Positions 15,703 through 40,077 of a DNA stretch of 64,000 nucleotides are shown piece after piece; the stretch's first letter is position 1, and every line of letters begins with the position of its first letter. Origin of the DNA: Candidatus Kapaibacterium thiocyanatum. Its GTDB lineage: Bacteria; Bacteroidota; Ignavibacteria; Kapaibacteriales; Kapaibacteriaceae. The notes under the pieces are model-generated. The model worked only from the letters and a program-made list of their open reading frames with translations. It had not been told where the DNA came from and ran no database searches. Location of the stretch: assembly GCA_001899175.1 (NCBI GenBank), contig MKVH01000002.1, positions 287,702 to 351,701 on the forward strand, read 5' to 3'. Position numbers and translations under genes: made by a program.

Positions 15703-16139
15703 GCAGGGCAGCACAACATCGCGATACACTTCGCGTCGCCGCGACCACGGAAAACCTCCATGTCGTGCGTGACTTCGTACGCCTGCGCATCGGCGAGCTC
15801 GGCTTCTCCGATTTCGAGGAGAACGGCATCATCCTTGCCGTCGACGAGGCTTGCTCCAATCTCATCCGTCACGCCTATCACAACGATCCGTCGCAGACCA
15901 TCGAAATCGCCGTGACGATCAGGCAGGACTCCGTATCCGTGAATATTGCCGATACGGCCGAAGCCTTCGACCCGTGCCATGCGCCATTGCCGGACATGAC
16001 CGACTATCTCGAGGAGCGCCGCCACGGCGGTCTAGGCATCCTGATCATGACGCGCGTCATGGACGATATCGCCTACGTTCCGGCCGGCGAAAGCTGCCAC
16101 CAAAACATGTTGATCCTTACGAAGCGTCGCACTGCGTAA
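15699..16139 (+). CDS. Anti-sigma regulatory factor, HATPase_c serine kinase (RsbW/SpoIIAB-like)
   Basis: EACSNLIRHAY, GGLGILIM motifs. ATGA overlap with the STAS gene. Confidence 0.75.
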   Translation: MSRAAQHRDTLRVAATTENLHVVRDFVRLRIGELGFSDFEENGIILAVDEACSNLIRHAYHNDPSQTIEIAVTIRQDSVSVNIADTAEAFDPCHAPLPDMTDYLEERRHGGLGILIMTRVMDDIAYVPAGESCHQNMLILTKRRTA

Positions 16140-16150
16140 TTTTGAGGGAT

Positions 16151-17224
16151 ATGAAGTATCTCCTCATGCTCGGCGGCGTGGGCCTCGGCCTTCTTCTGGG
16201 GTTCATGCCCTCAATCTCGCGTCCCAAACCGATGTGGTGGCGCATCCTGACCATCGCAGCGGTGACGCTGACCGTCCTGTTCTCCCTGCTGCCGCCCATC
16301 GGAGGTACCCTTACCGACGTCATGATGGCCTCGCGTGCCGATTCCACAAAGGCGGTGCCGTTCTATGCCGTCGTCGAGGACGAAGTCGCCCCGAAGGAAG
16401 GTGGCGCAGCGCCCGACATCATGCTGCGTGACGCACGCGACAGCCGTATTTCCGCCGTCCTGAGCGCCGATGCTTCCACCGTGGCGGCATTGCGTGCGAA
16501 CAAGGGCAGGAGCGTGATCGTCAACGTACGACGTGGAGCCAATGACGTCCAGCTCGTGGCTGCACCCACCAATACCATCGTCGCCGTCGAACCGGCCATC
16601 ACCCTGCCCTACATCATGGGCCTGGAGGAACGTGCACGGATCATCTTCTTCCACGTACCGATGTCGTGGACGGCTGTCGTGGCCTATCTGATCGCCATGA
16701 TCTTCGGCATCCGCTACCTCAGGAGCCGCGATCTCGCCCACGATGCCGCCTCGGCCGCAGCGGCCGGCGTAGGAACCCTCTATTGCATCCTGGCGACGAT
16801 CACCGGTGCCGTATGGGCCAAGTTCAACTGGGGCTCGTTCTGGAACTGGGACCCCCGCGAGACATCGATCTTCGTCCTGCTCCTGATCTACTTCGCCTAC
16901 TTCCTCCTGCGTACGTCGATAGACGATGATGAGCGTCGTGCACGTCTTAGCAGTGTCTACGGCATCGTGGCCTTCGTCACGGTACCGTTCTTCATCTTCA
17001 TCCTGCCTCGGCTGCTGCCGGGCCTGCATCCGGGAAGTTCGGACGATACCACGGCCGGCCCGCTGCTGAGCCCCAAGTCCGAGGCGATCAACCCGACGAA
17101 ACAGGTGGTGTTCGCCTTGTCGCTCATGGCATTCACCCTCATCTATTTCTGGCTCATGAACCTGCGTCTGCGTGCTACGAACCTCGAACGCACGATGGAG
17201 CAGCAACGTCTGGAGAACGTATGA
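16151..17224 (+). CDS. ccmC: Heme exporter protein CcmC with ~160-aa N-terminal extension
   Basis: C-terminal two-thirds carry the CcmC WWD region (WGSFWNWDPRETS). The N-terminal part has TM helices plus a soluble segment. Confidence 0.8.
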   Translation: MKYLLMLGGVGLGLLLGFMPSISRPKPMWWRILTIAAVTLTVLFSLLPPIGGTLTDVMMASRADSTKAVPFYAVVEDEVAPKEGGAAPDIMLRDARDSRISAVLSADASTVAALRANKGRSVIVNVRRGANDVQLVAAPTNTIVAVEPAITLPYIMGLEERARIIFFHVPMSWTAVVAYLIAMIFGIRYLRSRDLAHDAASAAAAGVGTLYCILATITGAVWAKFNWGSFWNWDPRETSIFVLLLIYFAYFLLRTSIDDDERRARLSSVYGIVAFVTVPFFIFILPRLLPGLHPGSSDDTTAGPLLSPKSEAINPTKQVVFALSLMAFTLIYFWLMNLRLRATNLERTMEQQRLENV

Positions 17225-17370
17225 TCGACTTTCTGACGAACAATCCTGCCTACGTCGTTCTTACCGCCGCGCTTCTGATATGGTCGGGCATCGCATGGTA
17301 CATCATGCGTGTGGACCGGAAGCTCGGCCAACTCGAAGCCACCGCAAAGTCCGAGAAGGGACGATCATGA
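17221..17370 (+). CDS. ccmD: CcmD-like small membrane protein (49 aa)
   Basis: Not in the ORF track (<60 aa). MIDFLTNNPAYVVLTAALLIWSGIAWYIMRVDRKLGQLEATAKSEKGRS. ATGA overlaps at both ends place it exactly between ccmC and ccmE. Confidence 0.5.
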   Translation: MIDFLTNNPAYVVLTAALLIWSGIAWYIMRVDRKLGQLEATAKSEKGRS

Positions 17371-24234: not shown

Positions 24235-26298
24235 TCAGCGTTGGGGCGTTTCCACGAGCACTTCCACCGTACGCGAGTAGAAGCGTCCTTCCGGTGTGTC
24301 GTTATTGTAGAGTGGCAGACGTTCGCCGAGGCCGGATGCACTCGCTTCGCCGACACCGAGGGCCTTTGCGACCGTCCGTGCCCGCTGTTCGCTCAGGCGC
24401 TGGTTGTAGTCCTCGGAGCCCGTCCTGTCCGTATAGCCTACGACGCGCACCTGCGACGTCGGCTGGATACGTTCCTTCACGTCGTTGACGACGCTCTGGT
24501 TCGCCGGTGAAAGGTCGGCCTTGTCGAAGGCGAAGAGAATGAGGCTGTAGCGATCGATCGTCTTGTCGGTACTGCCCGACGAACGCTTGCTGTCGATGGT
24601 CACTTCGCTGATGGGCAGTTTCGAGGACTGGGAAGGAATCACCATGCCGCTCGAATCCCGAACGACGAGCAGGTACTTGAGTTCGCCTGATCCATGCGGG
24701 ATATAGGCGGATTGCTCTTCGATTCTCCAGTCCACGCTGGGTGGAATCGGATTGCCATCGTGGAAGGTCTTGATGATGCGGTCGTTATTCGTGACGAACA
24801 GCGTCCACGTTGCGATGGGAATGCGCGGATCGATAGACGGCTGGAAGCGGATACCGGCTGGCTGGAAGACACGCATGGTATCGCGCGATTCCACGGGGGC
24901 GAGGATGGCGGGTGACGACGAGCTGATCTCGACGCGTCTGTTCTCCGCACGACCATCGACGTCGGCTTCGTTCGACGGCTTGTCCGGGAGGCCACGCGTT
25001 TCGATGTTCACATGGGATGGATCGACATCCCACATCCCCACGAGGTAACTCTTCACCGCAGCGGCACGCGATGTCGCGATGCCCGTATTTCTCGATGCTT
25101 CCGTACCGTCCGTGCATCCCGTCAGGGTGATGCTTGCCGACGGATCCTGTTGCATCCGCTTGCCGATGATGTTCAGCAGGTGATAGTAGGTGTGCATTGC
25201 GTCGAGGTTGTAGAAGTTCTCGACGGCGAACGCTTCCGTCTGTTCATCCCTGAGGCGGCGATACCGGACCGGTACGTCCGACGAGTTCTCGTCGAAGAAG
25301 ACGTAGGGAAGGATGGGGCGTACGCGTCGTGAAGCGAATTCCTCGATCCGTATCGACGTTCCCGTCGTGCGGCCGTCTTCCGTCAGGCCTGTGGCCGAAA
25401 CGGCGGACGTGAACGGGATACCGGGAGTATTCTTCGTCGGCGGGGTGATCGTGCGTGCGAAATCATAGAGTTCCGCATCCGACAGCGAGTCGTCCACAAC
25501 GTCGGGCGGGATGAAGGACAGGGCAAGTCCCGCACGGATCTGATGCGTGTTCCACGAGAGGCCCGAGACGACGGGCATCGGCGAGAACGTGAAGAGGACT
25601 TCAGGGCTCAGGAGGACCGTCTTGTCGGCATTCAGAGGGATGTCGTACGAGGCGCCGACGGTGACGCCGAGGGCGAGTTGACTGGCCTTGGGAATGTCGC
25701 CCGAGACGACATTGCGCTGACGCTGGTCGTTGGAGAAGGTGGCATTGGACGGCGAGACCAGCACTTCGGCCTGGTCGAACGTCGCACCCAGCAGGTAGCC
25801 TGCGGTGAATCCGCCATGCAACGTGAATTCGGGATTGACATGATAACCGAACAATGGTTCTATGCTGATCTGCTTGAACGAGGCCGTGAGGTCATGGCGG
25901 ATCGTGGCGGGGCCTGTCGTTCCGTCCGACATCATGATGGTCTTGTTCTCCGTGGCCGAGAAGGGTGCCTGATACTGACCGTAATGCAGACGTATCGCGA
26001 TCTGCGTCGTCGCGTTGAAGGGCGAGATGTAGGTAAGACCTGCGAACCATCCCGTACCCGTCACACCGGAGAATTCCGGGCAGCAATTGGGGACGGTGGG
26101 CAGACTCGAGAAGGAAGCGGAATGCAGACCGATGGCGTAGTTACCGAACAGGCCGATGCGCGGGCGGAGCAGGGGATCGGTCTGTACCTGGGCCTCGAGC
26201 TGTTGCGCGAACGTGCATACGAACAGTGCAGCGAGAAGAAAACGCATCATGACGGTCCTGGGTGTAGTCGTTCGATTGGGGGCTTGGTTGGAGATCAC
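24235..26298 (-). CDS. OmpA-family outer-membrane protein with tandem OmpA-like domains (paralog A)
   Basis: C-terminal VVGYTDRTGSEDYNQRLSEQRARTVAKAL, plus an internal LTGCTDGT...NRRVEI OmpA-like domain. N-terminal predicted barrel has a CCP motif. Likely signal peptide starts at M17 (26250). Confidence 0.8.
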   Translation of the reverse strand: MISNQAPNRTTTPRTVMMRFLLAALFVCTFAQQLEAQVQTDPLLRPRIGLFGNYAIGLHSASFSSLPTVPNCCPEFSGVTGTGWFAGLTYISPFNATTQIAIRLHYGQYQAPFSATENKTIMMSDGTTGPATIRHDLTASFKQISIEPLFGYHVNPEFTLHGGFTAGYLLGATFDQAEVLVSPSNATFSNDQRQRNVVSGDIPKASQLALGVTVGASYDIPLNADKTVLLSPEVLFTFSPMPVVSGLSWNTHQIRAGLALSFIPPDVVDDSLSDAELYDFARTITPPTKNTPGIPFTSAVSATGLTEDGRTTGTSIRIEEFASRRVRPILPYVFFDENSSDVPVRYRRLRDEQTEAFAVENFYNLDAMHTYYHLLNIIGKRMQQDPSASITLTGCTDGTEASRNTGIATSRAAAVKSYLVGMWDVDPSHVNIETRGLPDKPSNEADVDGRAENRRVEISSSSPAILAPVESRDTMRVFQPAGIRFQPSIDPRIPIATWTLFVTNNDRIIKTFHDGNPIPPSVDWRIEEQSAYIPHGSGELKYLLVVRDSSGMVIPSQSSKLPISEVTIDSKRSSGSTDKTIDRYSLILFAFDKADLSPANQSVVNDVKERIQPTSQVRVVGYTDRTGSEDYNQRLSEQRARTVAKALGVGEASASGLGERLPLYNNDTPEGRFYSRTVEVLVETPQR

Positions 26299-29200
26299 TT
26301 CGAAATCTCCAGTCGTTGTGAGCGGCGTTCCGTCGGAGTCGTCATGAGGATGTAGTAGGCACCGTTCGACATCGTCGTGACGTCGAAGGGCAGGCGGTAC
26401 ACACCCGGCTGGAGATAGCGATCAACGATCGTCGCGAGCGTGCGTCCGGTCATGTCGACGACGGTCACGGTCGTATGGCCGCGTTCGACGACGGCCACGT
26501 CGATCGTCGCCGGTCCGGTCGCAGGCTGCGGTGAGACGTGGATGCCGGCTCCCTGTGCCGCAAGCTTGATGAGTCGTGGTCCACCCTGGCGGCAAAGGTC
26601 GTCGAGGATGACCTGTCCGGGTTGCGTGCGTACCAGGATGGTATCCGCTACGCGGATGTTCGTGAAGGCGACGGTGGACGCCGTGTCGTTGCCCCACAGC
26701 GAATGGAAGCGGAGTGTCGTCGCGAGCGAGTCGTTGCCAGCGGGAATCGTGATGCGTACGGGAATCGTTCGCATGCCGTTGCTGACCGTACCGACAGGTG
26801 TCTGCCCCGAAGGCATCAGCAGGGTGGCGTTGACGATGACATCGACATCGATGTCACGGACCGTCGTGCGGTCGAGGTTGATCTTGTCGGTGATGTAGAC
26901 CGGTACGTCGATGCCACGGTCCGTATGTACGCGCATCGTGTCGGCACGGAGCAGGACACCGATATAGGTGCTGACGGTGGCACGGAATTGCAGCGTCTGA
27001 TTGTGGTTGCAGGTCGAGTCCATGAACGTGTACGATGCCGTATAGGCATTACCTGCCGTGCCCCCGCGGAAGCGGACGACGACGGTCGAGATGCCGCCCG
27101 GCGGTGTTACGTCGGGAAGGATGGATTCGATCCGGAAGGTTCCGAGTTCGATGGGCCCCTTGGGCCAGCGCAGTGATACCGTTCCGGTGTTGAGGATCTG
27201 GAACGTCTCCGTTGCAGGTGTATTCTCCGGAACGTTATCGAATGCGACGACGGGACGTGTGAGTTCGAAGCCGATCGAATCCTTGCGGGCAACGAGTTGC
27301 GTATAGGTTTCGCCGCCGATGGCATTCATGGCCGTCGACGTGAAGATCGCCTGCGCCGTGCGGATGCCCGGAATCATCGGCGTGAAGCGGATGATGAAGT
27401 CCTGCTTCGCCTTCGCTGCGAGTTCGAGCGGAAACTGTATCGATCCCACCGGAGTGATGGTGAATTCGGAGGCGTTCAGTCCGGCGACGCGTGCCTCGAA
27501 CAGGAGGAGCGATGAGTTGCCCGTATTCGACACGGTGATGGTCCGCTCCACCGGTGTGCTGTTGCAGGCATCGACGTCGAAGACGACCGACTGAACCGTC
27601 GAGATGGTGGCGTCGCCGCTGCCCTCACCGTAGAGTTTGACGACGATGGGAGCGCCAGATTCCGTCGTGAGGGTGACCTGTGCCGCGAAGCGGCCAAGGT
27701 CGGTGGGTTCGAAGCGCAGGATCAGGGAACGCGTCTCACCCGGAGCGAGGGTGAAGAATCCACCGCCCTGGACGATGGAGAACTGTCCTGATGCCGGGCC
27801 CGTCAGCGACGTTCCGGTGACGCGTACGGCCTCCGTGGCCGATGCCGGTAGGCTGATCACGATGGTCGTGTCGTTGGTGCCGAGGTTGGCGACCTTGCGT
27901 CCGAAGTCGACGAGATACGGTACCTGGAGTTGGGGCAAGGTACCGTTGCCGAAGACGCGTGTGCGGATCGTTCCCGTACCGGTTTCGATATCCAGATCTG
28001 CGCTACGGGCTCCTGCGGCCGTCGGTGCGAAGGCGAACTCCACGTCGAGAGCGGCACCGGGTGCCAGCATCGTGGACGTCGGAACGGAGACCATGTCGAA
28101 GTCCGTGAGATCGCCGGATGCGAGCCTGACGCTACGGATGGCAAGCGGCGTCGTACCGGTGTTGCGCACCACGGTCGCCGTCTTGTCGATACCGTTGCGG
28201 ACCATGACCGTCCCCATGTCGACGTCGCTGCCCGTTGCCGTACCGCCGACGACGGAGAAGGTGGCGTCGGAGACGTCCTCAGTGAGACGAAGGCCACCGA
28301 GGTTCCATATCCGTGCCGTGAAGTCCGTGGAGGCGGTGATGACGGACGTTCCGTTCTGACCGTATCGTGCGCTGTAGACCAGCCCGCGGTGGCCGGCGAG
28401 GAAGTTCGTCATGCGCAGCGTTCCCGCATCCAGGAACTTCGCCGTGCCATCGCCGCCTGCGGCGAGGATCTGGCTGCCGTTCGGAGAGTATCGTACGGAC
28501 AGGATGGAACCGCTGGACGGATTCGACTGCGTTCGTTGCTGGCCGGTGGACGCATTCCAGGTCCGTACCGTGAGATCGGCACTGCCTGAGACGACGGTGC
28601 TGCCGTCAGGCGAGATGTCCGCGCTGTAGACCGGACCGGTATGTCCGGTGAAACGCTGGATGACGTCCATCTGGTTGACGTCACGGATGACGGCGGTCTG
28701 TCCCTCGCCGCAGACGAGGCGCGTACCGTCGCCGTTCATGACGATGGAGTGTACGGCGCCCGTGACCTGCGTCTGCTGTCCGGCGATGGCGCCGTTCTGG
28801 ATCACCGTCAGGGCGTTGTCCTGTCCTACATATAGCTTGGATCCGTCCTTCGAGAAGACGAGCGACCATACGCGGCTACCGACCGGGATGGTCTGGATGA
28901 GCTGACGCGTATCGATGTCGAAGAATCGCACGGTGCCGTCGAAACTGCCGCTGGCCACGACGGGTTGCGTCGGGTGGCCCGCCACGGACGATACCCAGTC
29001 ACCATGCGTACCGAGACGGGCGATATGTTCACCGGTCTGTGCATTCCAGAGATTGACGCCGCCATCATGGCCGCCCGTTACCGCCCGGGTTCCACCTGCC
29101 ACGAATTCTGCCGTATAGAGGGGCTGTTCACCCGACAGGACGACGACCTTCGATGCATCGATGACCGTCTGCTGGATACGGACCTTGGCATGAGTCGTTT

Positions 29201-30593
29201 GTACAGGGCCGGGAACCCATCGATAGGAAAGTCCCGTCGCCGATTCCGTCAGGCTGGCCCACGTCGTTCCGTCGTCCGTACTCAGATCGATGCGTACGGG
29301 ATCGTCTGGCAACGAGCCTGTCCATGTGATGACGGTGTCGATACCGGCCGTGAGCGTTTCACCGCCGTTGGGGGAAACGACCCGAAGCGTGTTGTCGCGT
29401 GACCGGAAACCGGCCTTGGCACGGATGGTCTGGGACGAGCAGGCGTCGCTCGTCACGGTGATCGTGGCGAACTGTCCCGTCGAATCCTGGGCATCGTATC
29501 GGATGGTGATGTCGTGGCTCTGATCGGGCTGTAGTGTCACGTTCGGCGGTACGGCGCCACTCGTGATGGTGAAACGGGGGTTGTCGACGACGATGTTCGT
29601 GATGGTCACGGGCTTGTTGCGTGCCGTGAGGGTGACGGTGCGCGTGGCCGATGAGGAGACGGCCACTTCGCCGAAGGCGAGGCCGGTCGTACTGGCGTCG
29701 AGGAGCGAGCGTGAGCCGACGGGTACCGAATACGAACGATTCCTGGTAGTGGTGGTCCTGGTCAGGACGATGGCCCTGTCGGCGTTGCAGTTTGCGGAAG
29801 CCGTCCAGCTCACCGTACAGGAACCGAGCTGCTTGGCATCGGCGACGAAGGCACGTGCGTGGATCGTGGCTTCCAGAGCGGTCTGGATGTTTTCGGCCCA
29901 TGTGCCGCCGGACTCGGTGGCGAGGGTACGAAGGGATTCGGAGACGGGTGTTCCGACCCCGATGACGTAGATCCTGATGTGGAAGGTGCGCGCCAGCGAG
30001 AGCAGGGCCTCGACGTCGATACGGGTATTACCGTCCGTCATCAGGAGGAGCGTGCGATCGTAGCGTGCGTTCAGGAGCTGGTTGATCGCTCCCATCGGGC
30101 TTTCGTTGAGGCCGTTGGTCAGGTTCGTACCCTTGCCGACCTGCAGTGCGTCGACGGCAGAGGCGAAGCGCGGACGGTTCGACGTCGGTCCGAGCTGAAG
30201 CATCGGATGCTGATCGTAACCGATGAGACCTGCCTCATCGGCGGGATTCGTCAGTACGGCTTCGATGGCCTTCGCACCGGTCTTCTGGATGTCGAGGACC
30301 TGTGCCTGTGTCGATGCCGAGATGTCGCATGCCACCATCAGCGACAGGATACGCGCCGTACCCGCGGGAGGGCATACCGTCTGCGACGGCAGGACCTGGC
30401 CGTCTTCCCTGACGGTGATATCGTTGGCACCGGATTCGATGGTTTCGAGATCGCCCGATCCATTGAAGCCGAAGACGCGTGTGGAGATGGCAGGATAATT
30501 CCTGGAGTCCACGTTCATGACCACGAAGGACTGTGCCGTAAGTCCGATCGTAGTGAGTAACGTGCATAGAACGAACAGGGTAGCAGTGCGCAT
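26295..30593 (-). CDS. Giant secreted protein: vWA domain + WD40 beta-propeller + multiple Ig-like/ASPM-type beta domains + T9SS C-terminal sorting domain
   Basis: Signal peptide MRTATLFVLCTLLTTIGLTAQ. vWA-like metal-site region (LLLMTDGNT...IRIYVIGVG). Multiple WD repeats (SGSFDGTVRFFD, GSADLTVRTWN). T9SS-type C-terminus ...YRLPFDVTTMSNGAYYILMTTPTERRSQRLEISK. Alternative starts at 30599/30614. Confidence 0.75.
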   Translation of the reverse strand: MRTATLFVLCTLLTTIGLTAQSFVVMNVDSRNYPAISTRVFGFNGSGDLETIESGANDITVREDGQVLPSQTVCPPAGTARILSLMVACDISASTQAQVLDIQKTGAKAIEAVLTNPADEAGLIGYDQHPMLQLGPTSNRPRFASAVDALQVGKGTNLTNGLNESPMGAINQLLNARYDRTLLLMTDGNTRIDVEALLSLARTFHIRIYVIGVGTPVSESLRTLATESGGTWAENIQTALEATIHARAFVADAKQLGSCTVSWTASANCNADRAIVLTRTTTTRNRSYSVPVGSRSLLDASTTGLAFGEVAVSSSATRTVTLTARNKPVTITNIVVDNPRFTITSGAVPPNVTLQPDQSHDITIRYDAQDSTGQFATITVTSDACSSQTIRAKAGFRSRDNTLRVVSPNGGETLTAGIDTVITWTGSLPDDPVRIDLSTDDGTTWASLTESATGLSYRWVPGPVQTTHAKVRIQQTVIDASKVVVLSGEQPLYTAEFVAGGTRAVTGGHDGGVNLWNAQTGEHIARLGTHGDWVSSVAGHPTQPVVASGSFDGTVRFFDIDTRQLIQTIPVGSRVWSLVFSKDGSKLYVGQDNALTVIQNGAIAGQQTQVTGAVHSIVMNGDGTRLVCGEGQTAVIRDVNQMDVIQRFTGHTGPVYSADISPDGSTVVSGSADLTVRTWNASTGQQRTQSNPSSGSILSVRYSPNGSQILAAGGDGTAKFLDAGTLRMTNFLAGHRGLVYSARYGQNGTSVITASTDFTARIWNLGGLRLTEDVSDATFSVVGGTATGSDVDMGTVMVRNGIDKTATVVRNTGTTPLAIRSVRLASGDLTDFDMVSVPTSTMLAPGAALDVEFAFAPTAAGARSADLDIETGTGTIRTRVFGNGTLPQLQVPYLVDFGRKVANLGTNDTTIVISLPASATEAVRVTGTSLTGPASGQFSIVQGGGFFTLAPGETRSLILRFEPTDLGRFAAQVTLTTESGAPIVVKLYGEGSGDATISTVQSVVFDVDACNSTPVERTITVSNTGNSSLLLFEARVAGLNASEFTITPVGSIQFPLELAAKAKQDFIIRFTPMIPGIRTAQAIFTSTAMNAIGGETYTQLVARKDSIGFELTRPVVAFDNVPENTPATETFQILNTGTVSLRWPKGPIELGTFRIESILPDVTPPGGISTVVVRFRGGTAGNAYTASYTFMDSTCNHNQTLQFRATVSTYIGVLLRADTMRVHTDRGIDVPVYITDKINLDRTTVRDIDVDVIVNATLLMPSGQTPVGTVSNGMRTIPVRITIPAGNDSLATTLRFHSLWGNDTASTVAFTNIRVADTILVRTQPGQVILDDLCRQGGPRLIKLAAQGAGIHVSPQPATGPATIDVAVVERGHTTVTVVDMTGRTLATIVDRYLQPGVYRLPFDVTTMSNGAYYILMTTPTERRSQRLEISK

Positions 30594-31424
30594 CGTCATG
30601 CAACCAGGCCTCAAATAGATTCAACGACGTATCGAGTCAAGCACGAGCCATAAAAGTACCATTTCGGTGATGGCGCGACAAACTTTCTTTGACGGGGCGA
30701 AGACCGGGTATCGGCCGGTCGCGGTGGCCCGTTCTCCATCGCTCGTGCCATCAGGAATGGAGAACGCCGATCGTCAGCGGTCCGTTACAGGGATACCTGT
30801 CCGGACGGACTCGGAACCCGGTGCCGATCTGCATCGTCGCGACCGAACGACGCAGCACCGGTGTGAGGATCATTGTCGATTCGTCCGCAGTTCGTCCGCA
30901 GTGTCTTGCCGGAGTGCCTTGATGGGGGGAGATGGGAGGCGAGTACGACCGGAACGACGGGAGGGGCCGGTACGTGAAGGCGAATTCACGAACTGCGACG
31001 TTCGGTCGGTCGAAGGCGAATTCCTGGAAGGGAACGGGTGACGAATGGAGGCGATGCCGACGACCTTCCATATCAGGACGAAGGGTTCCGGCACTGGCCG
31101 CCGTGTAACGGAGGAACGACAGAACAGGACGATGGACGAAAGACCGATGAGGATGTCGAAGCTCCAGCCCGTGAAGCTCATGATGGCCCGAACCTTATGC
31201 TGCAGGGAAAGCCGATGCAGTACCAGGTCCACGGGGAAACGCAGGGCATGCCAGGCATCGTGGAACGCCCGGTAGTATCATGGATAACCGTACGCGATGT
31301 CGTATGAAGACGGTCTCAATGTCACGAAAACAGCGGTATCGGTACGAGAAGAGATGACCGACGCAGCCCGTGATGGAAGGGCTACGCCGGTCATGATGGA
31401 CTCACTGGATCGTCATGGGGCGCA

Positions 31425-33455
31425 TCACTCGATCGGAGTTTCGACCACGACCGTCACGGTGCGGCTGTATGCACGTCCCTCCGGGAGGTGGACATCGTAG
31501 GGCGACTGCTCTCCGAGCGATCGTACGTCTGCTCCTTGCAGCTTGAGTACGCGCGCCGTTTCGTTCGCACGACGTCGCGACAGCTCCAGATTGTACATGT
31601 CCGAACCGATGTTATCGGTGAAGCCACTCACGGTGACCGTCGATGCGGGACGTATACGCTGGGCGATGAGGTCGATGATGGCAGCATTCGCTCCCTTGAT
31701 GGCGGCGTCGTTGAAGTCGAAGAGGATGAGACTGAAGCGATCGATCTCCTTGTCGGCGATGCGCTCGATACGCTTCTTGCGGATCGTCATCTGCTGCACG
31801 CCGATCTGTTTCGCCGGTGGCATCAGCACGCTTCCGGCACGATCCTCGAGGGTCAGTTGATAGTCGACGGCGCTTTCGCTGCGGGGGATGGCCGTACGAT
31901 CGGAAGTCACGTCCCACGTCACGAACGTGGGAAGGGTATCCCTGCCATGCATGGAATACAGCGTACGTCCATCCTGTCTGGCTTCCACCTTCCATGTGGC
32001 GAGGCCAGCCGACGCGACGGACGTGAGATCGAAGCGTACCTGTTGCGGTGTCGATGTCCGCAACGTATCCGTCGTGAAGACCGGACGCAGGATCCTGCTG
32101 TCCGAACTGGTGATCTCCACACGACGATTCTCTTCGTGAGCGAGGGGAATGTCCGCCGGATCGCTCGCCCGCGTGGGATGTTCCGGCAGGAGACGCTGCT
32201 GGATCCGTATCCGCGACGTATCGATACCGCAGACATCGATGAAGTAGGCACGTACGGTCTTCGCCCGTGCCAGCGCCAGTGCGGTGCCTGCATCGCGACC
32301 CGTCTCGGACGTGCACCCCGTCAGTGTGAGCGTCGCCGCCGGATTGTCCCGCATGCGTCGTCCGACGATGTTCAGGATATGGTAGTAGGTCTCCAGTGTT
32401 CCTTGTGCATAGAGCTGCTCTTCCCTGAACGACTGTACGGACGAAGGATCGAGATTCCTGTATCGTGCCGGTAATGTGGAACTGCCTTCGTCGAAGAAGA
32501 TGTAGTTCAGGAGCGGCCGCAGGTCCGTGGCCACGATTTCCTCGATGCGCAGTGTGACGTCGTCGATCAACCGCCCATCGTCCTCTATGCCGTGCGCTTC
32601 GATGTCGCCACCGAGGAAGGGTCTGACGGGTGGTGGAGGCGGAACGGTATCGGGCGGCGGAGGTGGTGGAGCAGGAGGTTCGGAGATCGGCGACCAGCCG
32701 AGTGCCAGTCCGAACCGGAGTTGATGGGCCTTCCACGAGACACCGTCCGCCACACCGGTGAGGGCATGATGGTAGAAGATTTCGGGGGCGAGGAAGGTCG
32801 TGCCGCGTGTATTGAGGGGCAGGACGTACCGGGCACCGACGGCGATGGTGGCCCGCAATGTGGACGCACCCGGAATGTCCTTCGAAACGTCGACCCATAC
32901 ACGGTCACTACCGAGATAGGCGCCGTAGTCCGCGGGTTCGATCATCGTTTCCGTCTGATGGACCGACGACGTCGTGACGTAGGCGAGACGTCCGCCGACG
33001 AACAGATCCAGCCCACCGATGGCGCGCCAGCCGATCATCGGCTCGAGACCGATGCTGGACAATGTGGCATCGAGGTCATGGCGGAACAGCGCCTCGACGA
33101 CGCGAGCGGAGTCGCGCAGATCCGCTACGACCGTACGTTCGTCATCGGACTGACGTCCTCCTTCACCGGCATAGGTGAGGCGAAGGTGGAGCTTCCACCG
33201 GTCATCGAGCGGAAGCGTGCCGAAGGCACCCAGATAGAAGCCATTGCCCGACCCTCCGTCGAACGACGGGCAGCAGGACGGGATGTCGCCGAGTTTCCGG
33301 AAAGAGGCCACGTGACTGTTGCGCCCGTATCCTCCGAGGATGCCGAGTTCGGGGCGTGCGGCAGGAGCCTGTTGTCCATGCGCGGAGACGAGAACCGTCG
33401 ACGTCAGTACCAGGGCCGAGAGTATGGTTCGAAGCATAGTCGCAATTCCCGTCAT
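31425..33455 (-). CDS. OmpA-family outer-membrane protein with tandem OmpA-like domains and poly-Pro linker (paralog B)
   Basis: Same architecture as 24235..26298: CCPSF motif, LTGCTSETG...NRRVEI, C-terminal VSGFTDNIGSDMYNLELSRRRANETARVL. Linker PPAPPPPPPDTVPPPPPV. Confidence 0.8.
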   Translation of the reverse strand: MTGIATMLRTILSALVLTSTVLVSAHGQQAPAARPELGILGGYGRNSHVASFRKLGDIPSCCPSFDGGSGNGFYLGAFGTLPLDDRWKLHLRLTYAGEGGRQSDDERTVVADLRDSARVVEALFRHDLDATLSSIGLEPMIGWRAIGGLDLFVGGRLAYVTTSSVHQTETMIEPADYGAYLGSDRVWVDVSKDIPGASTLRATIAVGARYVLPLNTRGTTFLAPEIFYHHALTGVADGVSWKAHQLRFGLALGWSPISEPPAPPPPPPDTVPPPPPVRPFLGGDIEAHGIEDDGRLIDDVTLRIEEIVATDLRPLLNYIFFDEGSSTLPARYRNLDPSSVQSFREEQLYAQGTLETYYHILNIVGRRMRDNPAATLTLTGCTSETGRDAGTALALARAKTVRAYFIDVCGIDTSRIRIQQRLLPEHPTRASDPADIPLAHEENRRVEITSSDSRILRPVFTTDTLRTSTPQQVRFDLTSVASAGLATWKVEARQDGRTLYSMHGRDTLPTFVTWDVTSDRTAIPRSESAVDYQLTLEDRAGSVLMPPAKQIGVQQMTIRKKRIERIADKEIDRFSLILFDFNDAAIKGANAAIIDLIAQRIRPASTVTVSGFTDNIGSDMYNLELSRRRANETARVLKLQGADVRSLGEQSPYDVHLPEGRAYSRTVTVVVETPIE

Positions 33456-34160: not shown

Positions 34161-34827
34161 GGTTCGAACAGAGACTGTCGGGAGTATCCCGATGATAGAT
34201 ATAGGTGGGGTGATCCGTCCTGGCGATGACGACGCCTTCGTGCGAAGCGCGTTCGTGCAGCATTGCGTCGTCGGCATATCGTACGGCGTCGAACCCTCCC
34301 AGAGCCGTCAGGACGTCGCGGCGGATGACGAAGGTGCCGCCCACGACGCATTCCGCGATATGGATGGACTTCGTGGGATCGTCCTTGTCGGCCACGTAGG
34401 GCGTACCGACGATGTCCACGCCGCCGTGGAGGAATTCCACCATCGGATGGTCGAGCAGCATGCGCTTGCGGGAAGCCAGATGGTCGGGCAGGTATTCGTC
34501 ATCCGAGTCGAGGAAGGTCACGAAGAGCCCGCTGCTCGCCTGCAGGCCTGCGTTCCGGGACAGTCCGGTGCCCCTGTTCGTATGGTACAAGCCGCGTATG
34601 GTTCTGTGTGCGGCTGCGTACCTTTGCACGACGGCGGCCGTGTCATCGGTCGAGCCGTCGTCCACGACGATCGCCTCCCAATCCGTTTCCGTCTGTGCGA
34701 GCAGCGAGTCGAGAGCGCGGGGCAGCAGCGCTGCCCGATTGTACGTGCAGATGACGACGCTGAAGAACGGACGTCGTTCGACGCGCAGGGAACTGGTGGA
34801 TTCGGAAAACATGGAATCGGAGCTCAT
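34147..34827 (-). CDS. Glycosyltransferase family 2
   Basis: FSVVICTYNRAALLPRALDSLLAQT...VVDDGSTDDT, a GT2 (GT-A) signature. Start could be M6 (34812). Confidence 0.75.
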   Translation of the reverse strand: MSSDSMFSESTSSLRVERRPFFSVVICTYNRAALLPRALDSLLAQTETDWEAIVVDDGSTDDTAAVVQRYAAAHRTIRGLYHTNRGTGLSRNAGLQASSGLFVTFLDSDDEYLPDHLASRKRMLLDHPMVEFLHGGVDIVGTPYVADKDDPTKSIHIAECVVGGTFVIRRDVLTALGGFDAVRYADDAMLHERASHEGVVIARTDHPTYIYHRDTPDSLCSNHGQT

Positions 34828-34879
34828 GGATCAAAACTACGACGACTTGGAAGAACCGCTCGACCACGGTGCGGAATCG

Positions 34880-35545
34880 ATGACGAAGATCGATTTCTGG
34901 ACGGCGTGCTCGTCGAACGGCATCATTCTCGACATCGAGCAGATGGAGCGCCTGGAGCGGTATCATGACGAGCTCCGCTACTGGAACGAAAAGGTGAACA
35001 TGATCTCGCGCAAGGACGTGTCGAACATCTGGGAACGGCACATCCTCCATGCGCTGGCACTGGTGAAGTATGCGACCTTTCCCCAGAAGGCGCGTGTGCT
35101 GGACGTCGGTACCGGGGGCGGGCTGCCGGGCATTCCGCTCAAGATCGCCCGGCCGGATCTGCGCATGCTGATGATGGATTCCATCCGCAAGAAGGTGACC
35201 TGTACCGAGATGTTCGCCCAGCATACCGGACTCAAGGACATCGAGGTCCGGTGCGGTCGTGTGGAAGATCTCGTGAAGGAATCAAACTACCGGCGCGGGT
35301 TCGACGTTATTGTTTCACGGGCCGTGGCGCGTACGGGAGTCCTTCTGGACTGGGTACGCCCCCTCATGAAGCCGGCCGGCGGCGTCTGCTACTTCCTGAA
35401 GGGCGGAGACCTGCGCGAGGAATTCGCCGAAGCGCGGGAACGCCATCCCGGACTGCACATCGAGGAGACGCCGATCGATCTGTTCGGCGTGCCGGGCTTC
35501 AAAACGGATGACAAGAAGATCATTACCTGCAGCTATGCGCTATAG
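34880..35545 (+). CDS. rsmG: 16S rRNA (guanine527-N7)-methyltransferase
   Basis: VLDVGTGGGLPGIPL motif, collinear with E. coli RsmG from MTKIDFWTACS.... The longer ORF from 34811 would overlap the divergent GT2 start. Confidence 0.8.
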   Translation: MTKIDFWTACSSNGIILDIEQMERLERYHDELRYWNEKVNMISRKDVSNIWERHILHALALVKYATFPQKARVLDVGTGGGLPGIPLKIARPDLRMLMMDSIRKKVTCTEMFAQHTGLKDIEVRCGRVEDLVKESNYRRGFDVIVSRAVARTGVLLDWVRPLMKPAGGVCYFLKGGDLREEFAEARERHPGLHIEETPIDLFGVPGFKTDDKKIITCSYAL

Positions 35546-36233
35546 TATCATCTGTCTGACGATCGTGTTCTGCGTGACCGCAGGCATGGCCCAGGTGCGC
35601 GGCCCCGTGTCCGAGCCCCAGGCCGCGCCGGGTTCGAAGAGTGCCGTCAAGCTCGCACGCGTGAAGTACAACGGCGGGGGGGACTGGTACAACGATCCCA
35701 GTGCCGAAATCAACCTGCTGCGGTACGTTCGCGCGAACACGAACATCCTCGTCGACCCGGTCTACGAATTCGTGGACCTGGCCAGCGACAACCTGTTCCT
35801 GTATCCGATCATCTTCATGACGGGTCACGGTACGGTGAACTTCACGGACGTCGAGGCGCGGAAACTGCGTGCCTATCTCGAGAACGGCGGCTTCCTCTAC
35901 GTCGACGACGACTACGGTATGGATGTCTCCATCCGCAAGGAGCTGAGGAAGGTCTTTCCCGACCAGGAGCTGGTGGAGCTGCCCTTCGATCATCCGATCT
36001 ACTCCGCACATTTCGTCTTCAGGAACGGCGTGCCGAAGATCCATGAACACGACGCCAAGCCTCCCCAGGGATTCGGATTGTTCTCGAACGGACGTCTCTG
36101 CGTATTCTATACCTTCGAGTCGAATCCGAGTGATGGCTGGGCGGATCCTGAAGTCCATCACGACCCGCCCGAACGCCGCGAAGCGGCGCTTCGCTTCGGT
36201 ACCAACATCATCGTCTACGCCCTTTCCAAATGA
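35535..36233 (+). CDS. DUF4159-domain protein (signal peptide; secreted/periplasmic)
   Basis: MRYSIICLTIVFCVTAGMAQ signal peptide. Conserved segments ...YNGGGDWYNDPSAEINL...IIFMTGHG... Confidence 0.55.
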   Translation: MRYSIICLTIVFCVTAGMAQVRGPVSEPQAAPGSKSAVKLARVKYNGGGDWYNDPSAEINLLRYVRANTNILVDPVYEFVDLASDNLFLYPIIFMTGHGTVNFTDVEARKLRAYLENGGFLYVDDDYGMDVSIRKELRKVFPDQELVELPFDHPIYSAHFVFRNGVPKIHEHDAKPPQGFGLFSNGRLCVFYTFESNPSDGWADPEVHHDPPERREAALRFGTNIIVYALSK

Positions 36234-39200
36234 TGCAGACACAGCAACGATACCGTGCGATCGTCGGCCGCCTGAAATCCGTCAGGAGGGCCGAGCAGAT
36301 GCACGAAGCAGGGCGCGGGCTGGCGACGGCCGTCACCATCGGTGCGGCTGCGATGCTTGCCATGATCCTGTTCGAGGCATGGATGCACGGTACGGTGCAG
36401 CTACGCACGGCGATGGTCCTGGCATGGATCGGCGTGACCGTCGCTTCGCTGATCGTGCTCACGGGACCGGCCATCCTGCGCCTCATGGGGCTGATGCAGG
36501 GCGATACGGTCGAACGCATGGCCTTGCGCGTAGGACGCGCCTACGACGACGTGGGCGACATGCTCTGCAACGTCCTGCAACTGGTCCAGCCGGCTGCGGC
36601 CGGTGCCGCCGATCTCGCCAATGCGGCCTTCGAACGGACGGTCGCAGTCGCGGAACCGAAGGACTTCTCCGTCATCATCGATCGTCGACCCATACGGCGT
36701 GCGGCACTCTGGATGCTGCTGAGCCTTGTGCTCGTCATCGGATTGCCGCTCGCCATGCCATCCAGCCTGGGGGCCTCCTTCCAGCGCCTCGCCGCCTACG
36801 ATACGTCCTTCCTGCCACCGGCTCCCTACAGGTTCACCATCGAACCCAGGGATACGACGGTGATGCGGGGAACGACGCTGCGTGTGACGGCGCATGCCAT
36901 CGGAACGCCGCCGCCGTCCATCACGGTGTGGATCCGCGAACTGCCCAACGAACGCTACCAGCCCTTCACCGTACGGGCCGACTCGGCAGGGACCTATCAC
37001 TATCAGATGTCGGGCCTCACCGGTTCCGTCGAATGGTATGCCCAGGGCGCCTGGCTCGATGATGGGGTGATATCGGATACCGGAAGGATCACGGTCATCG
37101 ACCGCCCTCTCGTGCGCACCCTGCAGGGCCGCGTATCGCCACCGTCCTATACCATGCTCGGTCCTACGGAGCTCACGGAGCAGCAGGCCGACGTGACTGC
37201 ACTGAACGGTTCCACGGTCGATCTCTCCATCGTTTCCAACAAGGAATTGCGCTCGGCATCGATCCTCGTCATGCGTGGCGGATCCGATTCGTCGGCAACC
37301 GATACGACGCGCGTTCCCATGCAGGTGCGCGGCTCGTCGGCCAGCGGCCGTTTCCCCGTGCAGTTTACGGGCGCCTACGCCATCGTGCTCGAAGACAAGG
37401 ACGGACAGGGCAATGCCGAGCCCGTGCGCTACGCCATCGTCGCGCTGACGGACGGACATCCCACGATCGCCCTCATCCAGCCCACGACGGATGCAGAAGT
37501 GGATCAGCGGGCCGTCCTTCCCGTGACCGTGGCGATCGCCGACGACTACGGTTTCTCGTCGCTGAAGCTCCACTATCGTCTGGTCGCGTCGAAGTATGCT
37601 CGTCCGGAAGAGAAGTATTCGTCCATCGACCTGCCCTTCACCAACAACGGTGCGGCGATCGAAGTGCCCTACGTATGGAATCTCGGCAAGCTCGGAATCT
37701 CGCCGGAAGACGTCTACGAATTCTACGTGGAAGTGGCGGACAACGACCGCGTGCGAGGACCGAAGACGGCACGGACATCGACGATGAAGGTGCGTCTGCC
37801 CTCGCTCGACGAGGTCTTCGCCCAGACCGATCGCACACAGGACGAAGCCGCACGCGAACTCAAGGAGATCGCCAAGGAAGCGGAGGAAGTACGCAAGGAA
37901 GCCGAACAGCTCCAGCGCGAGATGGCCAAGCAGTCGCAGAAGCCGGCGGAACAGGTCGACTGGAAGGAAAAGAAGAAGGCCGAAGACCTCCTCAAGCGCC
38001 AGGAAGCGCTCGAGAAGAAGATGGAACAGGTGGTGGAGAAGATCGAGCAGATGACGGAACAGTTGCAGCAGCACAACGCCATCTCTCCCGAAACCCTGCA
38101 GAAGTACATGGAACTCCAGAAGCTCATGCAGCAGGTGAAGTCTCCCGAACTCCAGCGCATGCAGGAACAGATGCGGAAGGCCATGGAACAGATGTCGCCC
38201 GAAGAACTGCAGAAGGCGATGAAGGACTTCAAGTTCAATGAAGAGGATTTCAAGAAGAACATCGAACGGACGATGAACCTGCTCAAGCGCACGCAGGCGG
38301 AACAGAAGGCCGACGAACTTTCGAAGCGCGCCGAGGAACTCGCGCAGAAGCAGGACGAACTGCAGCAGCGCACCGAGAACACGAATGCATCGAACAAGGA
38401 AGAACGTCAACGCATCGCCGAAGAGCAGAAGCGTCTGCAGGATGATCTGCAGAAGCTCGGTCAGGAGACGAAGGATCTGGAAAAGCTCATGAAGGAACTC
38501 GGCGCCGACATGCCGATGGACCAGATGGAGAAAGCGCAGAAGGAGCTCAACCAGGACGAGACGCAGCAACAGATGGAACAGGCCGAACGTGACGCCCAGA
38601 AGGGCGACATGCAGAACGCCCGCAAGAAACAGCAGCAGGCTTCCGACAATCTGCAGCGCTTCGCACAGCAGATGAAGAACATGAAGCGCGACATGAAGCG
38701 TAATTCTGCACGCGAGGCCATGCGGCAGATGCAGCGTTCGATGAACGACATGCTCGACCTGTCGCGTCAGCAGGAAGCCCTGCGGGACCAGACGCAGTCG
38801 CTCGATCCCAATTCCGCACAGTATCCGCAGATGGCCCAGAAGCAGCAGCGCATCCAGGAAGCCATGTCCAACATCGCCAACAACATGATGCAGCTCGCCC
38901 AGAAGTCCACCAGCGTGTCGCAGGAAATGGCACAGGACATGGGCAATTCGCTGCAGAACATGAAGGATGCCATCCAGCAGTTGCAGGACCGGAACGGACA
39001 GATGGCTGCGAAGAACCAGAGCGGCGCCATGAGTTCGATGAACAGCGCCGTGCAACGGATGAGCGATGCCCTCGGACAGATGATGCAGGGCGAAGGCCAG
39101 GCCCAGGGCGGTCAGGGACAGAAGCCCGGCATGGGTGAAGGGAACGGTCAGAGTCCATTCCAGCGTCTGCAGAATCTGGCCAATCAGCAGAAGTCCATCA

Positions 39201-39709
39201 ACGAAGGTTCGCAGTCCATGGGTGGTAACGGTCAACCCATGAACGAGCAGCAGCGCGCGGAGATGGGGCGCCTTGCGGCGCAACAGGGCAAGGCACTCAA
39301 GGCGATGGACGAACTCGAGAAAGAACGTCAGCAGATCAACGGCGGAAAGAAGCCGATCGGTGACCTCAAGGCCATCGCCGACGATATGCGGGAAGTGATG
39401 ACGGACATGCAGACGGGTTCCATCACATCCGAAACGCGTATGCGTCAGGAACGCATTCTCTCGCGTCTGCTGAATGCCTCGCGAAGCATCAACGACCGTG
39501 ACTACGAGAAGACGCGTGAATCACGTGCCGGACAGGACGTCAACCGCAAGAGCCCGTCGGCACTCGACATGCGCCTGCTCGAAGGCAAGACGCAGTCCAT
39601 GCGAGACCTTCTCAACAAGCTTCGCGAAGGATACACCAAGGACTACGAGAATCTGATCAGGTTGTATTTCGAAGCGCTGCAGAAACAGAACGTCAACGTC
39701 GGACAGTGA
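36230..39709 (+). CDS. DUF4175-like giant membrane-anchored protein with ~600-aa Q/E/K-rich coiled-coil C-terminal half
   Basis: 1159 aa. N-terminal TM helices, a beta-rich middle region, then a long heptad-like Q/E/K/M low-complexity stretch. ATGA-coupled to the DUF4159 gene. Confidence 0.6.
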   Translation: MMQTQQRYRAIVGRLKSVRRAEQMHEAGRGLATAVTIGAAAMLAMILFEAWMHGTVQLRTAMVLAWIGVTVASLIVLTGPAILRLMGLMQGDTVERMALRVGRAYDDVGDMLCNVLQLVQPAAAGAADLANAAFERTVAVAEPKDFSVIIDRRPIRRAALWMLLSLVLVIGLPLAMPSSLGASFQRLAAYDTSFLPPAPYRFTIEPRDTTVMRGTTLRVTAHAIGTPPPSITVWIRELPNERYQPFTVRADSAGTYHYQMSGLTGSVEWYAQGAWLDDGVISDTGRITVIDRPLVRTLQGRVSPPSYTMLGPTELTEQQADVTALNGSTVDLSIVSNKELRSASILVMRGGSDSSATDTTRVPMQVRGSSASGRFPVQFTGAYAIVLEDKDGQGNAEPVRYAIVALTDGHPTIALIQPTTDAEVDQRAVLPVTVAIADDYGFSSLKLHYRLVASKYARPEEKYSSIDLPFTNNGAAIEVPYVWNLGKLGISPEDVYEFYVEVADNDRVRGPKTARTSTMKVRLPSLDEVFAQTDRTQDEAARELKEIAKEAEEVRKEAEQLQREMAKQSQKPAEQVDWKEKKKAEDLLKRQEALEKKMEQVVEKIEQMTEQLQQHNAISPETLQKYMELQKLMQQVKSPELQRMQEQMRKAMEQMSPEELQKAMKDFKFNEEDFKKNIERTMNLLKRTQAEQKADELSKRAEELAQKQDELQQRTENTNASNKEERQRIAEEQKRLQDDLQKLGQETKDLEKLMKELGADMPMDQMEKAQKELNQDETQQQMEQAERDAQKGDMQNARKKQQQASDNLQRFAQQMKNMKRDMKRNSAREAMRQMQRSMNDMLDLSRQQEALRDQTQSLDPNSAQYPQMAQKQQRIQEAMSNIANNMMQLAQKSTSVSQEMAQDMGNSLQNMKDAIQQLQDRNGQMAAKNQSGAMSSMNSAVQRMSDALGQMMQGEGQAQGGQGQKPGMGEGNGQSPFQRLQNLANQQKSINEGSQSMGGNGQPMNEQQRAEMGRLAAQQGKALKAMDELEKERQQINGGKKPIGDLKAIADDMREVMTDMQTGSITSETRMRQERILSRLLNASRSINDRDYEKTRESRAGQDVNRKSPSALDMRLLEGKTQSMRDLLNKLREGYTKDYENLIRLYFEALQKQNVNVGQ

Positions 39710-39714
39710 TCGGC

Positions 39715-40077
39715 ATGAAACTGCTCTTGTTCTGCGTGCTGCAGTCCGCTCTCGGAGTCGGTGGTACCGCCCTGCTGACGCAGGCCTTGCACGGACGTGA
39801 CATCTCGGTGGCATCGATCACGTCGGCGACGATGACGTGGCAGGGAATCGGCGGACTCGTTCTGCTGTTCTCGTCCTTTCTCGTGATGGGCGTCATCCTC
39901 TCCTTCGCGAAGATGGCCGCCTACATTCCCCTCAATACGGCGCTTACCTTCCTGTTCACGGTCGTCCTCACCATCGTGGTGCAGCGGGATGCGGTGTCCT
40001 GGCCGCTCGTAGGTGGAATGGCGCTGATCTTCGTCGGCGTGCTGCTGGTGAGTGCGGCCACTACTCCTCGTCCGTAA
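39715..40077 (+). CDS. Small 4-TM membrane protein (SMR/DMT-like)
   Basis: ~120 aa with four hydrophobic helices. A GTG at 39706 overlaps the upstream stop. Confidence 0.4.

Follow-up and report, generated by a model that had tools for sequence, protein, structure and literature searches.

A 64,000-nucleotide stretch of Candidatus Kapaibacterium thiocyanatum DNA (contig MKVH01000002.1, positions 287,702 to 351,701; hereafter the window) carries two adjoining genes of the DUF4159 and DUF4175 families. Very probably, the two form a translationally coupled module consisting of an exported GATase1-like DUF4159 protein and an 1159-residue inner-membrane DUF4175 protein. Both families are already catalogued, and NCBI names the products 'DUF4159 domain-containing protein' and 'DUF4175 family protein'; new here are the size of the family and its tie to MoxR-DUF58-BatA-VWA operons. 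Newly seen as well is that the half of DUF4175 described as low-complexity in a first-pass annotation, made from the letters of the window, is a length-constrained helical architecture.

The DUF4159–DUF4175 gene pair

Four open reading frames (ORFs) on the + strand, encoding RsmG, DUF4159, DUF4175 and a 123-aa hydrophobic protein, touch or overlap one another. The two central genes are as follows.

35508..36233, + strand: DUF4159 protein, 241 aa (PF13709, E 2e-67)
36230..39709, + strand: DUF4175 family protein, 1159 aa (PF13779, E 9.7e-23)

The first-pass annotation had named the same two families, and both Pfam matches lie above the gathering scores: PF13709 was matched with 227 bits against a gathering score of 25.9, and PF13779 with 80.5 bits against a cutoff of 27.3, the strong stretch of the latter being confined to aa 297-525. 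The ATGA coupling of the two genes, also proposed there, can be read directly as the overlap of the DUF4159 stop and the DUF4175 start (sequence CCAAATGATGCAG at 36226-36238). The DUF4159 product is 100% identical to a 'Candidatus Kapabacteria' thiocyanatum protein, the NCBI model of which begins 9 codons later, at 35535.

A word-indexed protein search returned 77 full-length DUF4175 homologues, and an N-terminal profile used in the same kind of search returned only 5 matches, the index apparently being swamped by low-complexity words. A genome scan with one genome per species yielded at least 585 relatives, and 10,277 clusters (50% identity) at E <= 1e-30 emerged when a profile was run exhaustively against 1.84 billion cluster representatives. 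Nearly all of the best 150 representatives align end to end with the window protein; the 146 that are full-length have a median of 1131 aa (interquartile range 1121-1151).

Gene order was read at 80 genome loci, the best 80 of the at least 585 relatives, almost all of which come from metagenome-assembled genomes (MAGs) of Kapabacteria/Ignavibacteria. DUF4159 lies immediately 5′ of DUF4175 in 65 of the 80, several of the exceptions being truncated contigs. Gaps of -32 to +30 nt are found in most of the adjacent loci, and three loci have a gene for an AbgT transporter in the middle of the pair. The ATGA overlap recurs in two distant Gemmatimonadota-like contigs (L081 and L082). The pair is conserved in the Fibrobacterota–Chlorobiota–Bacteroidota (FCB) group, as had been stated, and nothing on the DUF4159/DUF4175 pair was found in the literature.

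The DUF4159 partner

35508..35591, + strand: predicted Sec signal peptide, aa 1-28, on a hydrophobic segment at aa 6-30, with cleavage placed between ...AGMA and Q
35649..36224, + strand: DUF4159 domain, aa 48-239, delimited by alignments and invariant motifs

The predicted signal peptide agrees with the earlier description of DUF4159 as a secreted partner. Gln at position +1 after signal-peptide cleavage is the Bacteroidetes pattern, and cleavage is therefore placed just before Gln29, a residue that is nearly invariant after a small residue in 31 homologues and is followed by a variable P/Q-rich linker. The motifs GGGDWYND, TGHG, DDDYG, PKIHEHD and NPxDGW are invariant in the domain across the same 31 homologues. 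With 65-80% identity across genera, DUF4159 is among the most conserved proteins of these genomes.

An AlphaFold2 (AF2) model of DUF4159 had a mean predicted local distance difference test score (pLDDT) of 86.8 and matched PDB entry 4I66 in Foldseek (E 2.8e-14, TM score 0.82), an entry that sequence and profile searches also found (profile E 6e-10). Matches of the model to ThuA-like domains and to glutamine amidotransferase domains (E 1e-3 to 0.1) were distant only; structural evidence is what led Pfam to assign DUF4159 to the GATase1 clan (PMC4702930). A strand-turn at aa 101-108, assigned by inspection as the presumed position of the nucleophile, reads FMTGHG and is without Cys. The structural-genomics DUF4159 structure 4I66 (Hoch_4089 of Haliangium ochraceum) has the same fold as the window protein but shares only 23% identity with it and lacks TGHG, DDDYG and HEHD. 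These His/Asp motifs are kept where a stand-alone DUF4159 is paired with DUF4175, also at the Gemmatimonadota-like loci, and are missing both from 4I66 and from the copy in the MoxR cluster of Gemmatirosa described below. They probably mark a site peculiar to this subfamily, which might bind a metal or the partner, rather than a family-wide catalytic centre.

A derivation of DUF4159 as a detached GATase1-like domain of BatA is not supported, the hhalign comparison with the GATase1-like part of BatA proteins being not significant. The Corynebacterium crudilactis plasmid pCRULAC1 (L083, 12070-12687) carries a DUF4159 gene on its own, with 43% identity to that of the window at the protein level, which adjoins a dihydrofolate reductase gene amid IS26/IS6 elements and aminoglycoside/sulfonamide resistance genes; the plasmid probably captured this piece from the chromosome of a member of a distant phylum.

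Membrane part and beta-sandwich region of DUF4175

36317..36466, + strand: transmembrane (TM) hairpin of TM1 (aa 30-48) and TM2 (aa 61-79), from hydropathy and charge (AF2 helices 2-52 and 56-86)
36467..36700, + strand: cytoplasmic helical insert, aa 80-157 (78 residues, K/R-rich), from the alignment consensus
36701..36757, + strand: TM3, aa 158-176, from hydropathy (AF2 helix 153-175)
36827..37795, + strand: beta-sandwich region, aa 200-522 (~320 residues), from AF2 strands with pLDDT mostly >90

The topology of DUF4175 was derived from a hydropathy scan, positive-inside charge counts and an AF2 model built on 71 sequences (mean pLDDT 80.7; predicted template modelling score, pTM, 0.47). It predicts an N-terminus inside the cell, three TM helices and ~980 periplasmic residues after aa 176. 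The N-terminus is basic (7 K/R in aa 1-30), and an RRPIRR stretch directly before TM3 agrees with the positive-inside rule. The cytoplasmic insert carries the conserved motif A-x-R-x-G-x-x-Y/F-P-D/E-x-x-D-x-L-x-N-A-x-Q-L and is conserved also in short planctomycete-type relatives.

In Foldseek the beta region matched the macroglobulin arrays of complement C3/C4/C5, FN3 triplets (fibronectin 12-14) and Ig domains at E ~1e-6, and the modelled strand pattern, from which the count was read, suggests about three tandem Ig/FN3/macroglobulin-like domains. A search of PDB sequences with DUF4175 gave generic helical matches only. The earlier account of a membrane-anchored, beta-rich N-terminal half is therefore upheld by the hydropathy and by the AF2 strands. 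Two Asp-rich motifs are invariant in the beta region, DDYGFS (aa 438-443) and DND (aa 504-506). Both fall in the last beta-sandwich domain, as DDYGFS and E-x-x-DND-x-x-x-GPK (37541-37549 and 37739-37747), and may resemble the Ca2+-binding inter-domain motifs of cadherin-like domains.

The helical half of DUF4175

37805..39493, + strand: Q/E/K/M-rich helical region, aa 526-1088, with 17 predicted helices of 10-63 residues
39098..39154, + strand: G/Q-rich disordered hinge, aa 957-975 (pLDDT <50), the sole length-variable segment
39494..39571, + strand: conserved non-helical linker, aa 1089-1114 (low pLDDT; invariant R1096 and P1109)
39572..39697, + strand: C-terminal helical hairpin, aa 1115-1156 (AF2; motif GYTKDYExLIRxYFEAL, invariant Y1146)

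Segment lengths were compared in the 146 full-length representatives, whose median identity to the window protein is 31%. The blocks at aa 526-720, 721-956 and 976-1088 are 191 +/- 5, 233 +/- 6 and 113 +/- 8 residues long, respectively, and the linker at aa 1089-1114 is 26 +/- 0.8 residues long with 39% identity; the G/Q hinge ranges from 5 to 30 residues with 55% gaps. In a 26-sequence alignment reaching down to 20% identity, aa 526-1159 are conserved as much as or more than the N-terminal 190 residues and are nearly gap-free. The first-pass annotation had made its reading of this half depend on conservation in orthologues, and conservation with nearly constant segment lengths is what was found, which argues that the helical half is a real, constrained domain. 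The term 'low-complexity' used there does not suit a region that is nearly gap-free and length-invariant across representatives.

The helical, Q/E/K/M-rich character of the C-terminal half was confirmed by codon counts and by the AF2 model, which places 19 helices of 10-63 residues across aa 526-1156, with loops of 1-9 residues between them and with two disordered stretches (aa 956-973 and 1088-1118) that break the series. Many single helices bear a narrow a/d hydrophobic stripe, with an occupancy of 0.7-1.0 versus 0.0-0.1 elsewhere (z up to 4.5), and 22% of the residues of the half are hydrophobic. A Fourier test over aa 530-1060 gave no dominant 3.5-residue period, the two longest helices (671-717 and 794-856) lose heptad register, and no uninterrupted register over hundreds of residues was seen, the longest predicted helix having 63 residues. 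The predicted helical region matched four-helix-bundle and talin folds; comparison between the helical blocks for internal repeats gave weak similarity (hhalign probability 80-91%) that could be compositional. From the AF2 helices, the missing dominant period and the loss of register in the longest helices, we conclude that the half probably consists of segmented helices that fold into hairpins or bundles rather than one long rod. Of the ~600-aa coiled coil proposed earlier, the helical nature and the a/d stripes of many helices remain, whereas a single continuous coil of 600 residues is not supported.

Strand composition and the antisense ORF

In positions 37800-39709 the + strand contains A 0.30, T 0.12, G 0.31 and C 0.27, that is, 0.60 purine, with 0.64 in the best 600-nt segment, compared with 0.493 +/- 0.018 (maximum 0.534) in the coding strands of 25 other window genes. 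All eight of the most purine-rich segments of the 64 kb fall in the 3′ half of DUF4175, where GC is 0.55-0.60 as against 0.63-0.665 in the 5′ half; counted over the whole window, the composition thus agrees with the purine extreme and the local GC drop reported for this gene. The bias is one of A over T (AT skew +0.35 to +0.54), GC skew being merely ~0 to 0.15. The helical region at 37805..39493 is its source: among the 635 codons of the C-terminal half, CAG (92), AAG (54), ATG (48) and GAA (47) are the commonest, and aa 525-1159 comprise Q 15%, E 11%, K 9%, A 8.5%, L 8% and M 7.6%. In 18 orthologues, too, the 3′ half is rich in purine (0.58-0.66), across GC contents from 0.32 to 0.74; because this excess persists at every GC content, the strand bias follows from amino-acid composition.

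Opposite the gene lies a long ORF.

36401..39283, - strand: spurious antisense ORF, 960 codons, in the codon-aligned antisense frame

One alternative takes this ORF as the real gene, or the region as non-coding repeat DNA. The ORF is indeed present in the sequence, but stops of the codon-aligned antisense frame can come only from sense TTA, CTA and TCA, which are rare because the GC content at third codon positions (GC3) of the sense frame is 0.79, similar to that of the other genes. Shuffles of codon order left on average 710 antisense codons in a row without a stop, versus the 1039 observed, with 2.8% of the shuffles reaching 1039, and in several other window genes the antisense strand is open across 90-99% of the length. 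The antisense frame stays open for at most 111-502 codons in the 18 orthologues, and sense-frame homologues align end to end at 20-97% identity. Since the run is expected from codon usage and the frame is closed in orthologues, we reject the antisense ORF as a gene, give the antisense or non-coding reading practically no chance and take the sense frame as the gene, in line with the earlier view of the ORF as spurious. For annotation, the pair shows clearly how both a long antisense ORF and an anomaly of strand composition can arise purely from amino-acid composition.

Relatives in MoxR/BatA operons

The N-terminal profile led to distant homologues of smaller size than the window protein, with 744 and 779 aa and, in a third that is cut by the contig end, at least 817 aa. 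Two short homologues were confirmed by hhalign, one at L084 (P0201; probability 99.6 over residues 20-619) and a second with probability 99.1; both share the TM, cytoplasmic-insert and beta-domain parts with the window DUF4175. The gene orders at the informative loci are listed below.

L085, Roseibacillus: MoxR, DUF58, BatA, 807-aa protein, DUF4175 homologue
L084, MAG GCA_030432695.1: BatA, 830-aa protein, homologue, ..., TPR, NPCBM
L087, Planctomyces sp. SH-PL62 plasmid: DUF58, BatA, VWA, homologue
L086, Gemmatirosa kalamazoonensis plasmid 1: DUF4159 domain, MoxR, DUF58, BatA_N+VWA+GATase1-like, 1268-aa DUF4175-like protein
L034 6871-13552, Ignavibacteria MAG: MoxR (AAA_3), 703-aa protein without a family, long-form DUF4175

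Short DUF4175 homologues belong regularly to the MoxR-DUF58-BatA-VWA operons of Planctomycetota and Verrucomicrobiota. The 1268-residue DUF4175-like protein of Gemmatirosa has beta domains similar to those of the window DUF4175. At L034 the DUF4175 start overlaps the preceding stop, and no DUF4159 gene lies within 10 kb upstream. Because homologues sit in MoxR-DUF58-BatA-VWA clusters, the FCB pair is related to components of Bat/Cmd-type MoxR operons. The likeness lies in the short homologues being encoded after BatA and VWA in such operons and, in Gemmatirosa, in a DUF4175-like gene placed after BatA with a DUF4159 domain in the same cluster; the classical Bacteroides Bat operon differs, being described as encoding BatA-E, TPR and SH3 proteins and not DUF4175 (PMC5700661).

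Neighbouring genes and further loci

34853..35545, + strand: rsmG (16S rRNA m7G527 methyltransferase; Pfam GidB E 5e-40, TIGR00138 E 1.6e-37)
39706..40077, + strand: small protein, 123 aa, with ~4 TM segments by hydropathy (alternative ATG at 39715)

The 3′ end of rsmG overlaps the DUF4159 start, so that rsmG, which is found 5′ of the pair in 37 of the 80 loci, probably opens the transcript to which the pair belongs. The ORF that contains it opens at 34412, ~147 codons before the GidB domain, and the extension (34412-34852) has a Ser/Arg/Cys-rich translation unlike a protein domain, so that the true start is probably near 34853. On the other side, the 123-aa ORF overlaps the DUF4175 end as GTGA, unless its start is the ATG at 39715. 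The first-pass annotation had a small 4-TM protein following the pair: a + strand ORF with ~4 hydrophobic segments is present, but its place there is lineage-specific synteny, since it lies 3′ of the pair in 17 of the 80 loci, all of them the closest relatives. A Pfam match of the protein to TMEM234 was weak and below threshold. Both rsmG and the small TM gene, a lineage-specific neighbour that is probably co-transcribed, are lineage synteny and stand outside the conserved module. PADLOC anti-phage defence models, including MoxR-vWA conflict systems, matched none of the three proteins.

The rest of the 64-kb window consists of housekeeping genes (nth, purT, priA, uvrB, valS and others). Two OmpA-family proteins of ~680 aa each enclose one of 1439 aa that combines a WD40 propeller with ASH/HYDIN-like Ig and DUF1573 domains (24235-33455, - strand); lying ~3-12 kb upstream of the pair, these genes seem to be an envelope-associated cluster of their own. 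At locus L043 a 468-aa WD40 protein is encoded immediately 5′ of DUF4175.

At L081 (8479-9309) and L082 (4582-5427) a TP_methylase gene of ~280 aa, RsmI-like by size and family, lies just 5′ of the pair. The gene 5′ of the pair would then be a 16S rRNA methyltransferase in two distant lineages, the TP_methylase identity being putative, which is possibly a coincidence. At four loci (L081 13368-16449; L082 9398-12531; L062 14159-17338, - strand; L073 about 14121-17267, - strand) a TPR protein of 520-620 aa and an exported protein of 336-442 aa adjoin the pair, coming after DUF4175 in L081 and L082 and lying convergent just downstream in L062 and L073. The exported protein matched no Pfam or NCBIfam family and is very conserved (54% identity between Gemmatimonadota-like and Ignavibacteria loci; motifs GKILIPMD..HLKAYG, GGHDPED and PGYRLILNN). 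A four-gene module of the pair with these two genes was rejected, as it is missing from the window and from the other loci.

Copies of Kapabacteria/Ignavibacteria type also occur in MAGs labelled Hyphomicrobiales, Patescibacteria or Desulfobulbaceae (L011, L022, L024, L029, L031, L032, L041, L046-L048 and L050), some of which keep the rsmG-DUF4159-DUF4175 synteny. These off-phylum labels are likely taxonomic mislabels or binning errors, and a DUF4159 match in Candidatus Didemnitutus may be another.

Proposed role and alternatives

We suggest that the DUF4159 and DUF4175 products would form a periplasmic complex in which DUF4175 would act as a fixed-length, membrane-anchored scaffold or spacer of a Bat/Cmd-type envelope-maintenance machinery. 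Partners in the cytoplasm, for instance MoxR or DUF58, would be likely to make contact at the cytoplasmic insert, and the beta domains and helical bundles would hold DUF4159 at a defined periplasmic position. The His/Asp-rich pocket of DUF4159 (TGHG, DDDYG and HEHD) may point to metal or ligand binding rather than glutaminase chemistry. Envelope-integrity and morphology defects are described for the Rhizobium RL3499-RL3502 MoxR operon, and the aerotolerance role of Bat operons is presented as disputed, in passages of PMC3893208 and PMC5700661; loss of the pair would be expected to give defects like those in Rhizobium. We put the scaffold or spacer mechanism forward tentatively and, by itself, think it rather doubtful; for the description of the module and this mechanism taken together we would assign slightly less than an even chance.

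Several observations weigh against this proposal. No MoxR (AAA_3), DUF58, BatA_N (TIGR02226) or VWA gene occurs in the 64-kb window, and in most of the 80 loci no MoxR, DUF58 or BatA gene occurs within 10 kb, so that the pair may work independently of MoxR systems. Physical interaction between DUF4159 and DUF4175 is inferred from gene coupling only, and homology of DUF4159 to the GATase1-like part of BatA was not shown by hhalign. With a pTM of just 0.47, the AF2 model of DUF4175 does not fix the relative arrangement of the domains or the overall length, and as a monomer model it may hide intermolecular coiled coils. No experiments on any long-form DUF4175 member were found in the literature, and no NCBIfam match ties the protein to the family in Alphaproteobacteria for which phenotypes are known.

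We take PF13779 to have been seeded from this alphaproteobacterial family, TIGR02302, whose members presumably have N-terminal TM helices and a long extracytoplasmic C-terminal region with Gln/Gly-rich sequence. The window protein fits that description with its three TM segments, Gln-rich C-terminal half (15%) and G/Q hinge. The FCB form differs in being longer (~1130 aa), in its much larger length-invariant helical region and in being paired with a stand-alone DUF4159. No NCBIfam family was matched at E <= 0.01 by either window protein or by the distant relatives. A TIGR02302 gene is listed among the CenR-bound targets in Rhodobacter (PMC9275681), and an Azorhizobium mutant of the family overproduces exopolysaccharide according to a title cited in PMC6842974. 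For the helical half, the talin rod and TolA domain II are analogies of form only, without sequence homology: the former rests on generic bundle matches, and TolA spans the membrane once and has just one long helix, unlike the window DUF4175, which moreover has no TolQ/TolR partners here.

Other roles can be drawn from the same architecture. The C-terminal half could be one long fibrous coiled-coil rod, probably oligomeric, that serves as an envelope-spanning tether or mechanosensor, as the first-pass annotation suggested; the a/d stripes of single helices, the low hydrophobic content and a constant length would fit such a tether, and intermolecular coils would be invisible to a monomer model, yet the short segmented helices and the missing period make the rod unlikely. 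It might instead be a periplasmic molecular ruler, a chain of ~4-5 helix bundles with a length fixed by selection. DUF4159 would then be a metal-dependent enzyme in which His stands where amidotransferases have Cys, and the ruler would keep it at a constant distance from the inner membrane, perhaps near the peptidoglycan or the outer-membrane leaflet; this stricter form of the spacer strikes us as quite unlikely. Slimmer still is the prospect that the Met/Gln-rich helices offer a surface for binding in the periplasm, as a holdase of the Spy/CpxP kind that takes up unfolded envelope proteins or as a buffer for a metal such as Cu, with DUF4159 as a cofactor. No Pfam match at E <= 0.01 was obtained to the Spy/CpxP (LTXXQ) family PF07813 or a related one.

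A transmembrane signal relay, in which the periplasmic region senses the envelope state and the insert between TM2 and TM3 signals to MoxR/DUF58-type partners, overlaps the scaffold proposal, with sensing instead of a structural role. The conserved cytoplasmic insert is common to the short MoxR-operon relatives, the TM hairpin and third TM helix offer a plausible relay geometry, and MoxR ATPases are cytoplasmic, whereas at least one VWA domain of the BatA type lies in the periplasm (PMC5700661). However, Pfam recognised no kinase, HAMP, GGDEF or other output domain, no regulator gene is linked in the window or the 80 loci, and evidence of conformational coupling is absent; we consider a relay improbable, to the same degree as the rod. 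By analogy, DUF4175 might be a cell-division (divisome) protein like AdvA of Acinetobacter baumannii, the sole characterised protein reported with a DUF4175 match: an inner-membrane protein with two TM helices that is essential, locates to mid-cell and on depletion gives filaments (PMC7481262), to which the CenR-bound TIGR02302 gene of Rhodobacter may be added. The likeness would lie in the membrane location and in an envelope and division phenotype. The AdvA match is confined to the N-terminal membrane part, with a transposon-tolerant site at residues 203-238 downstream of it; AdvA is not paired with DUF4159, gives no evidence of beta-sandwich or long helical regions, and no division genes are linked to the pair in the window. 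A divisome role is very unlikely.

For the scaffold or spacer proposal, the strict lengths of the helical blocks provide a concrete spacer or ruler hypothesis for a protein otherwise dismissed as a low-complexity coiled coil. The operon tie connects the pair to Bat/Cmd systems, whose role in envelope integrity and aerotolerance has been in question since 1999; if the ruler were real, the FCB pair would be an autonomous core of the Bat/MoxR envelope systems and a handle on their role. Long-form DUF4175 is among the larger protein families without an assigned function. Nothing found here contradicts expectation, and the pair offers a clean entry point both into this large uncharacterised family and into the old Bat/MoxR question.

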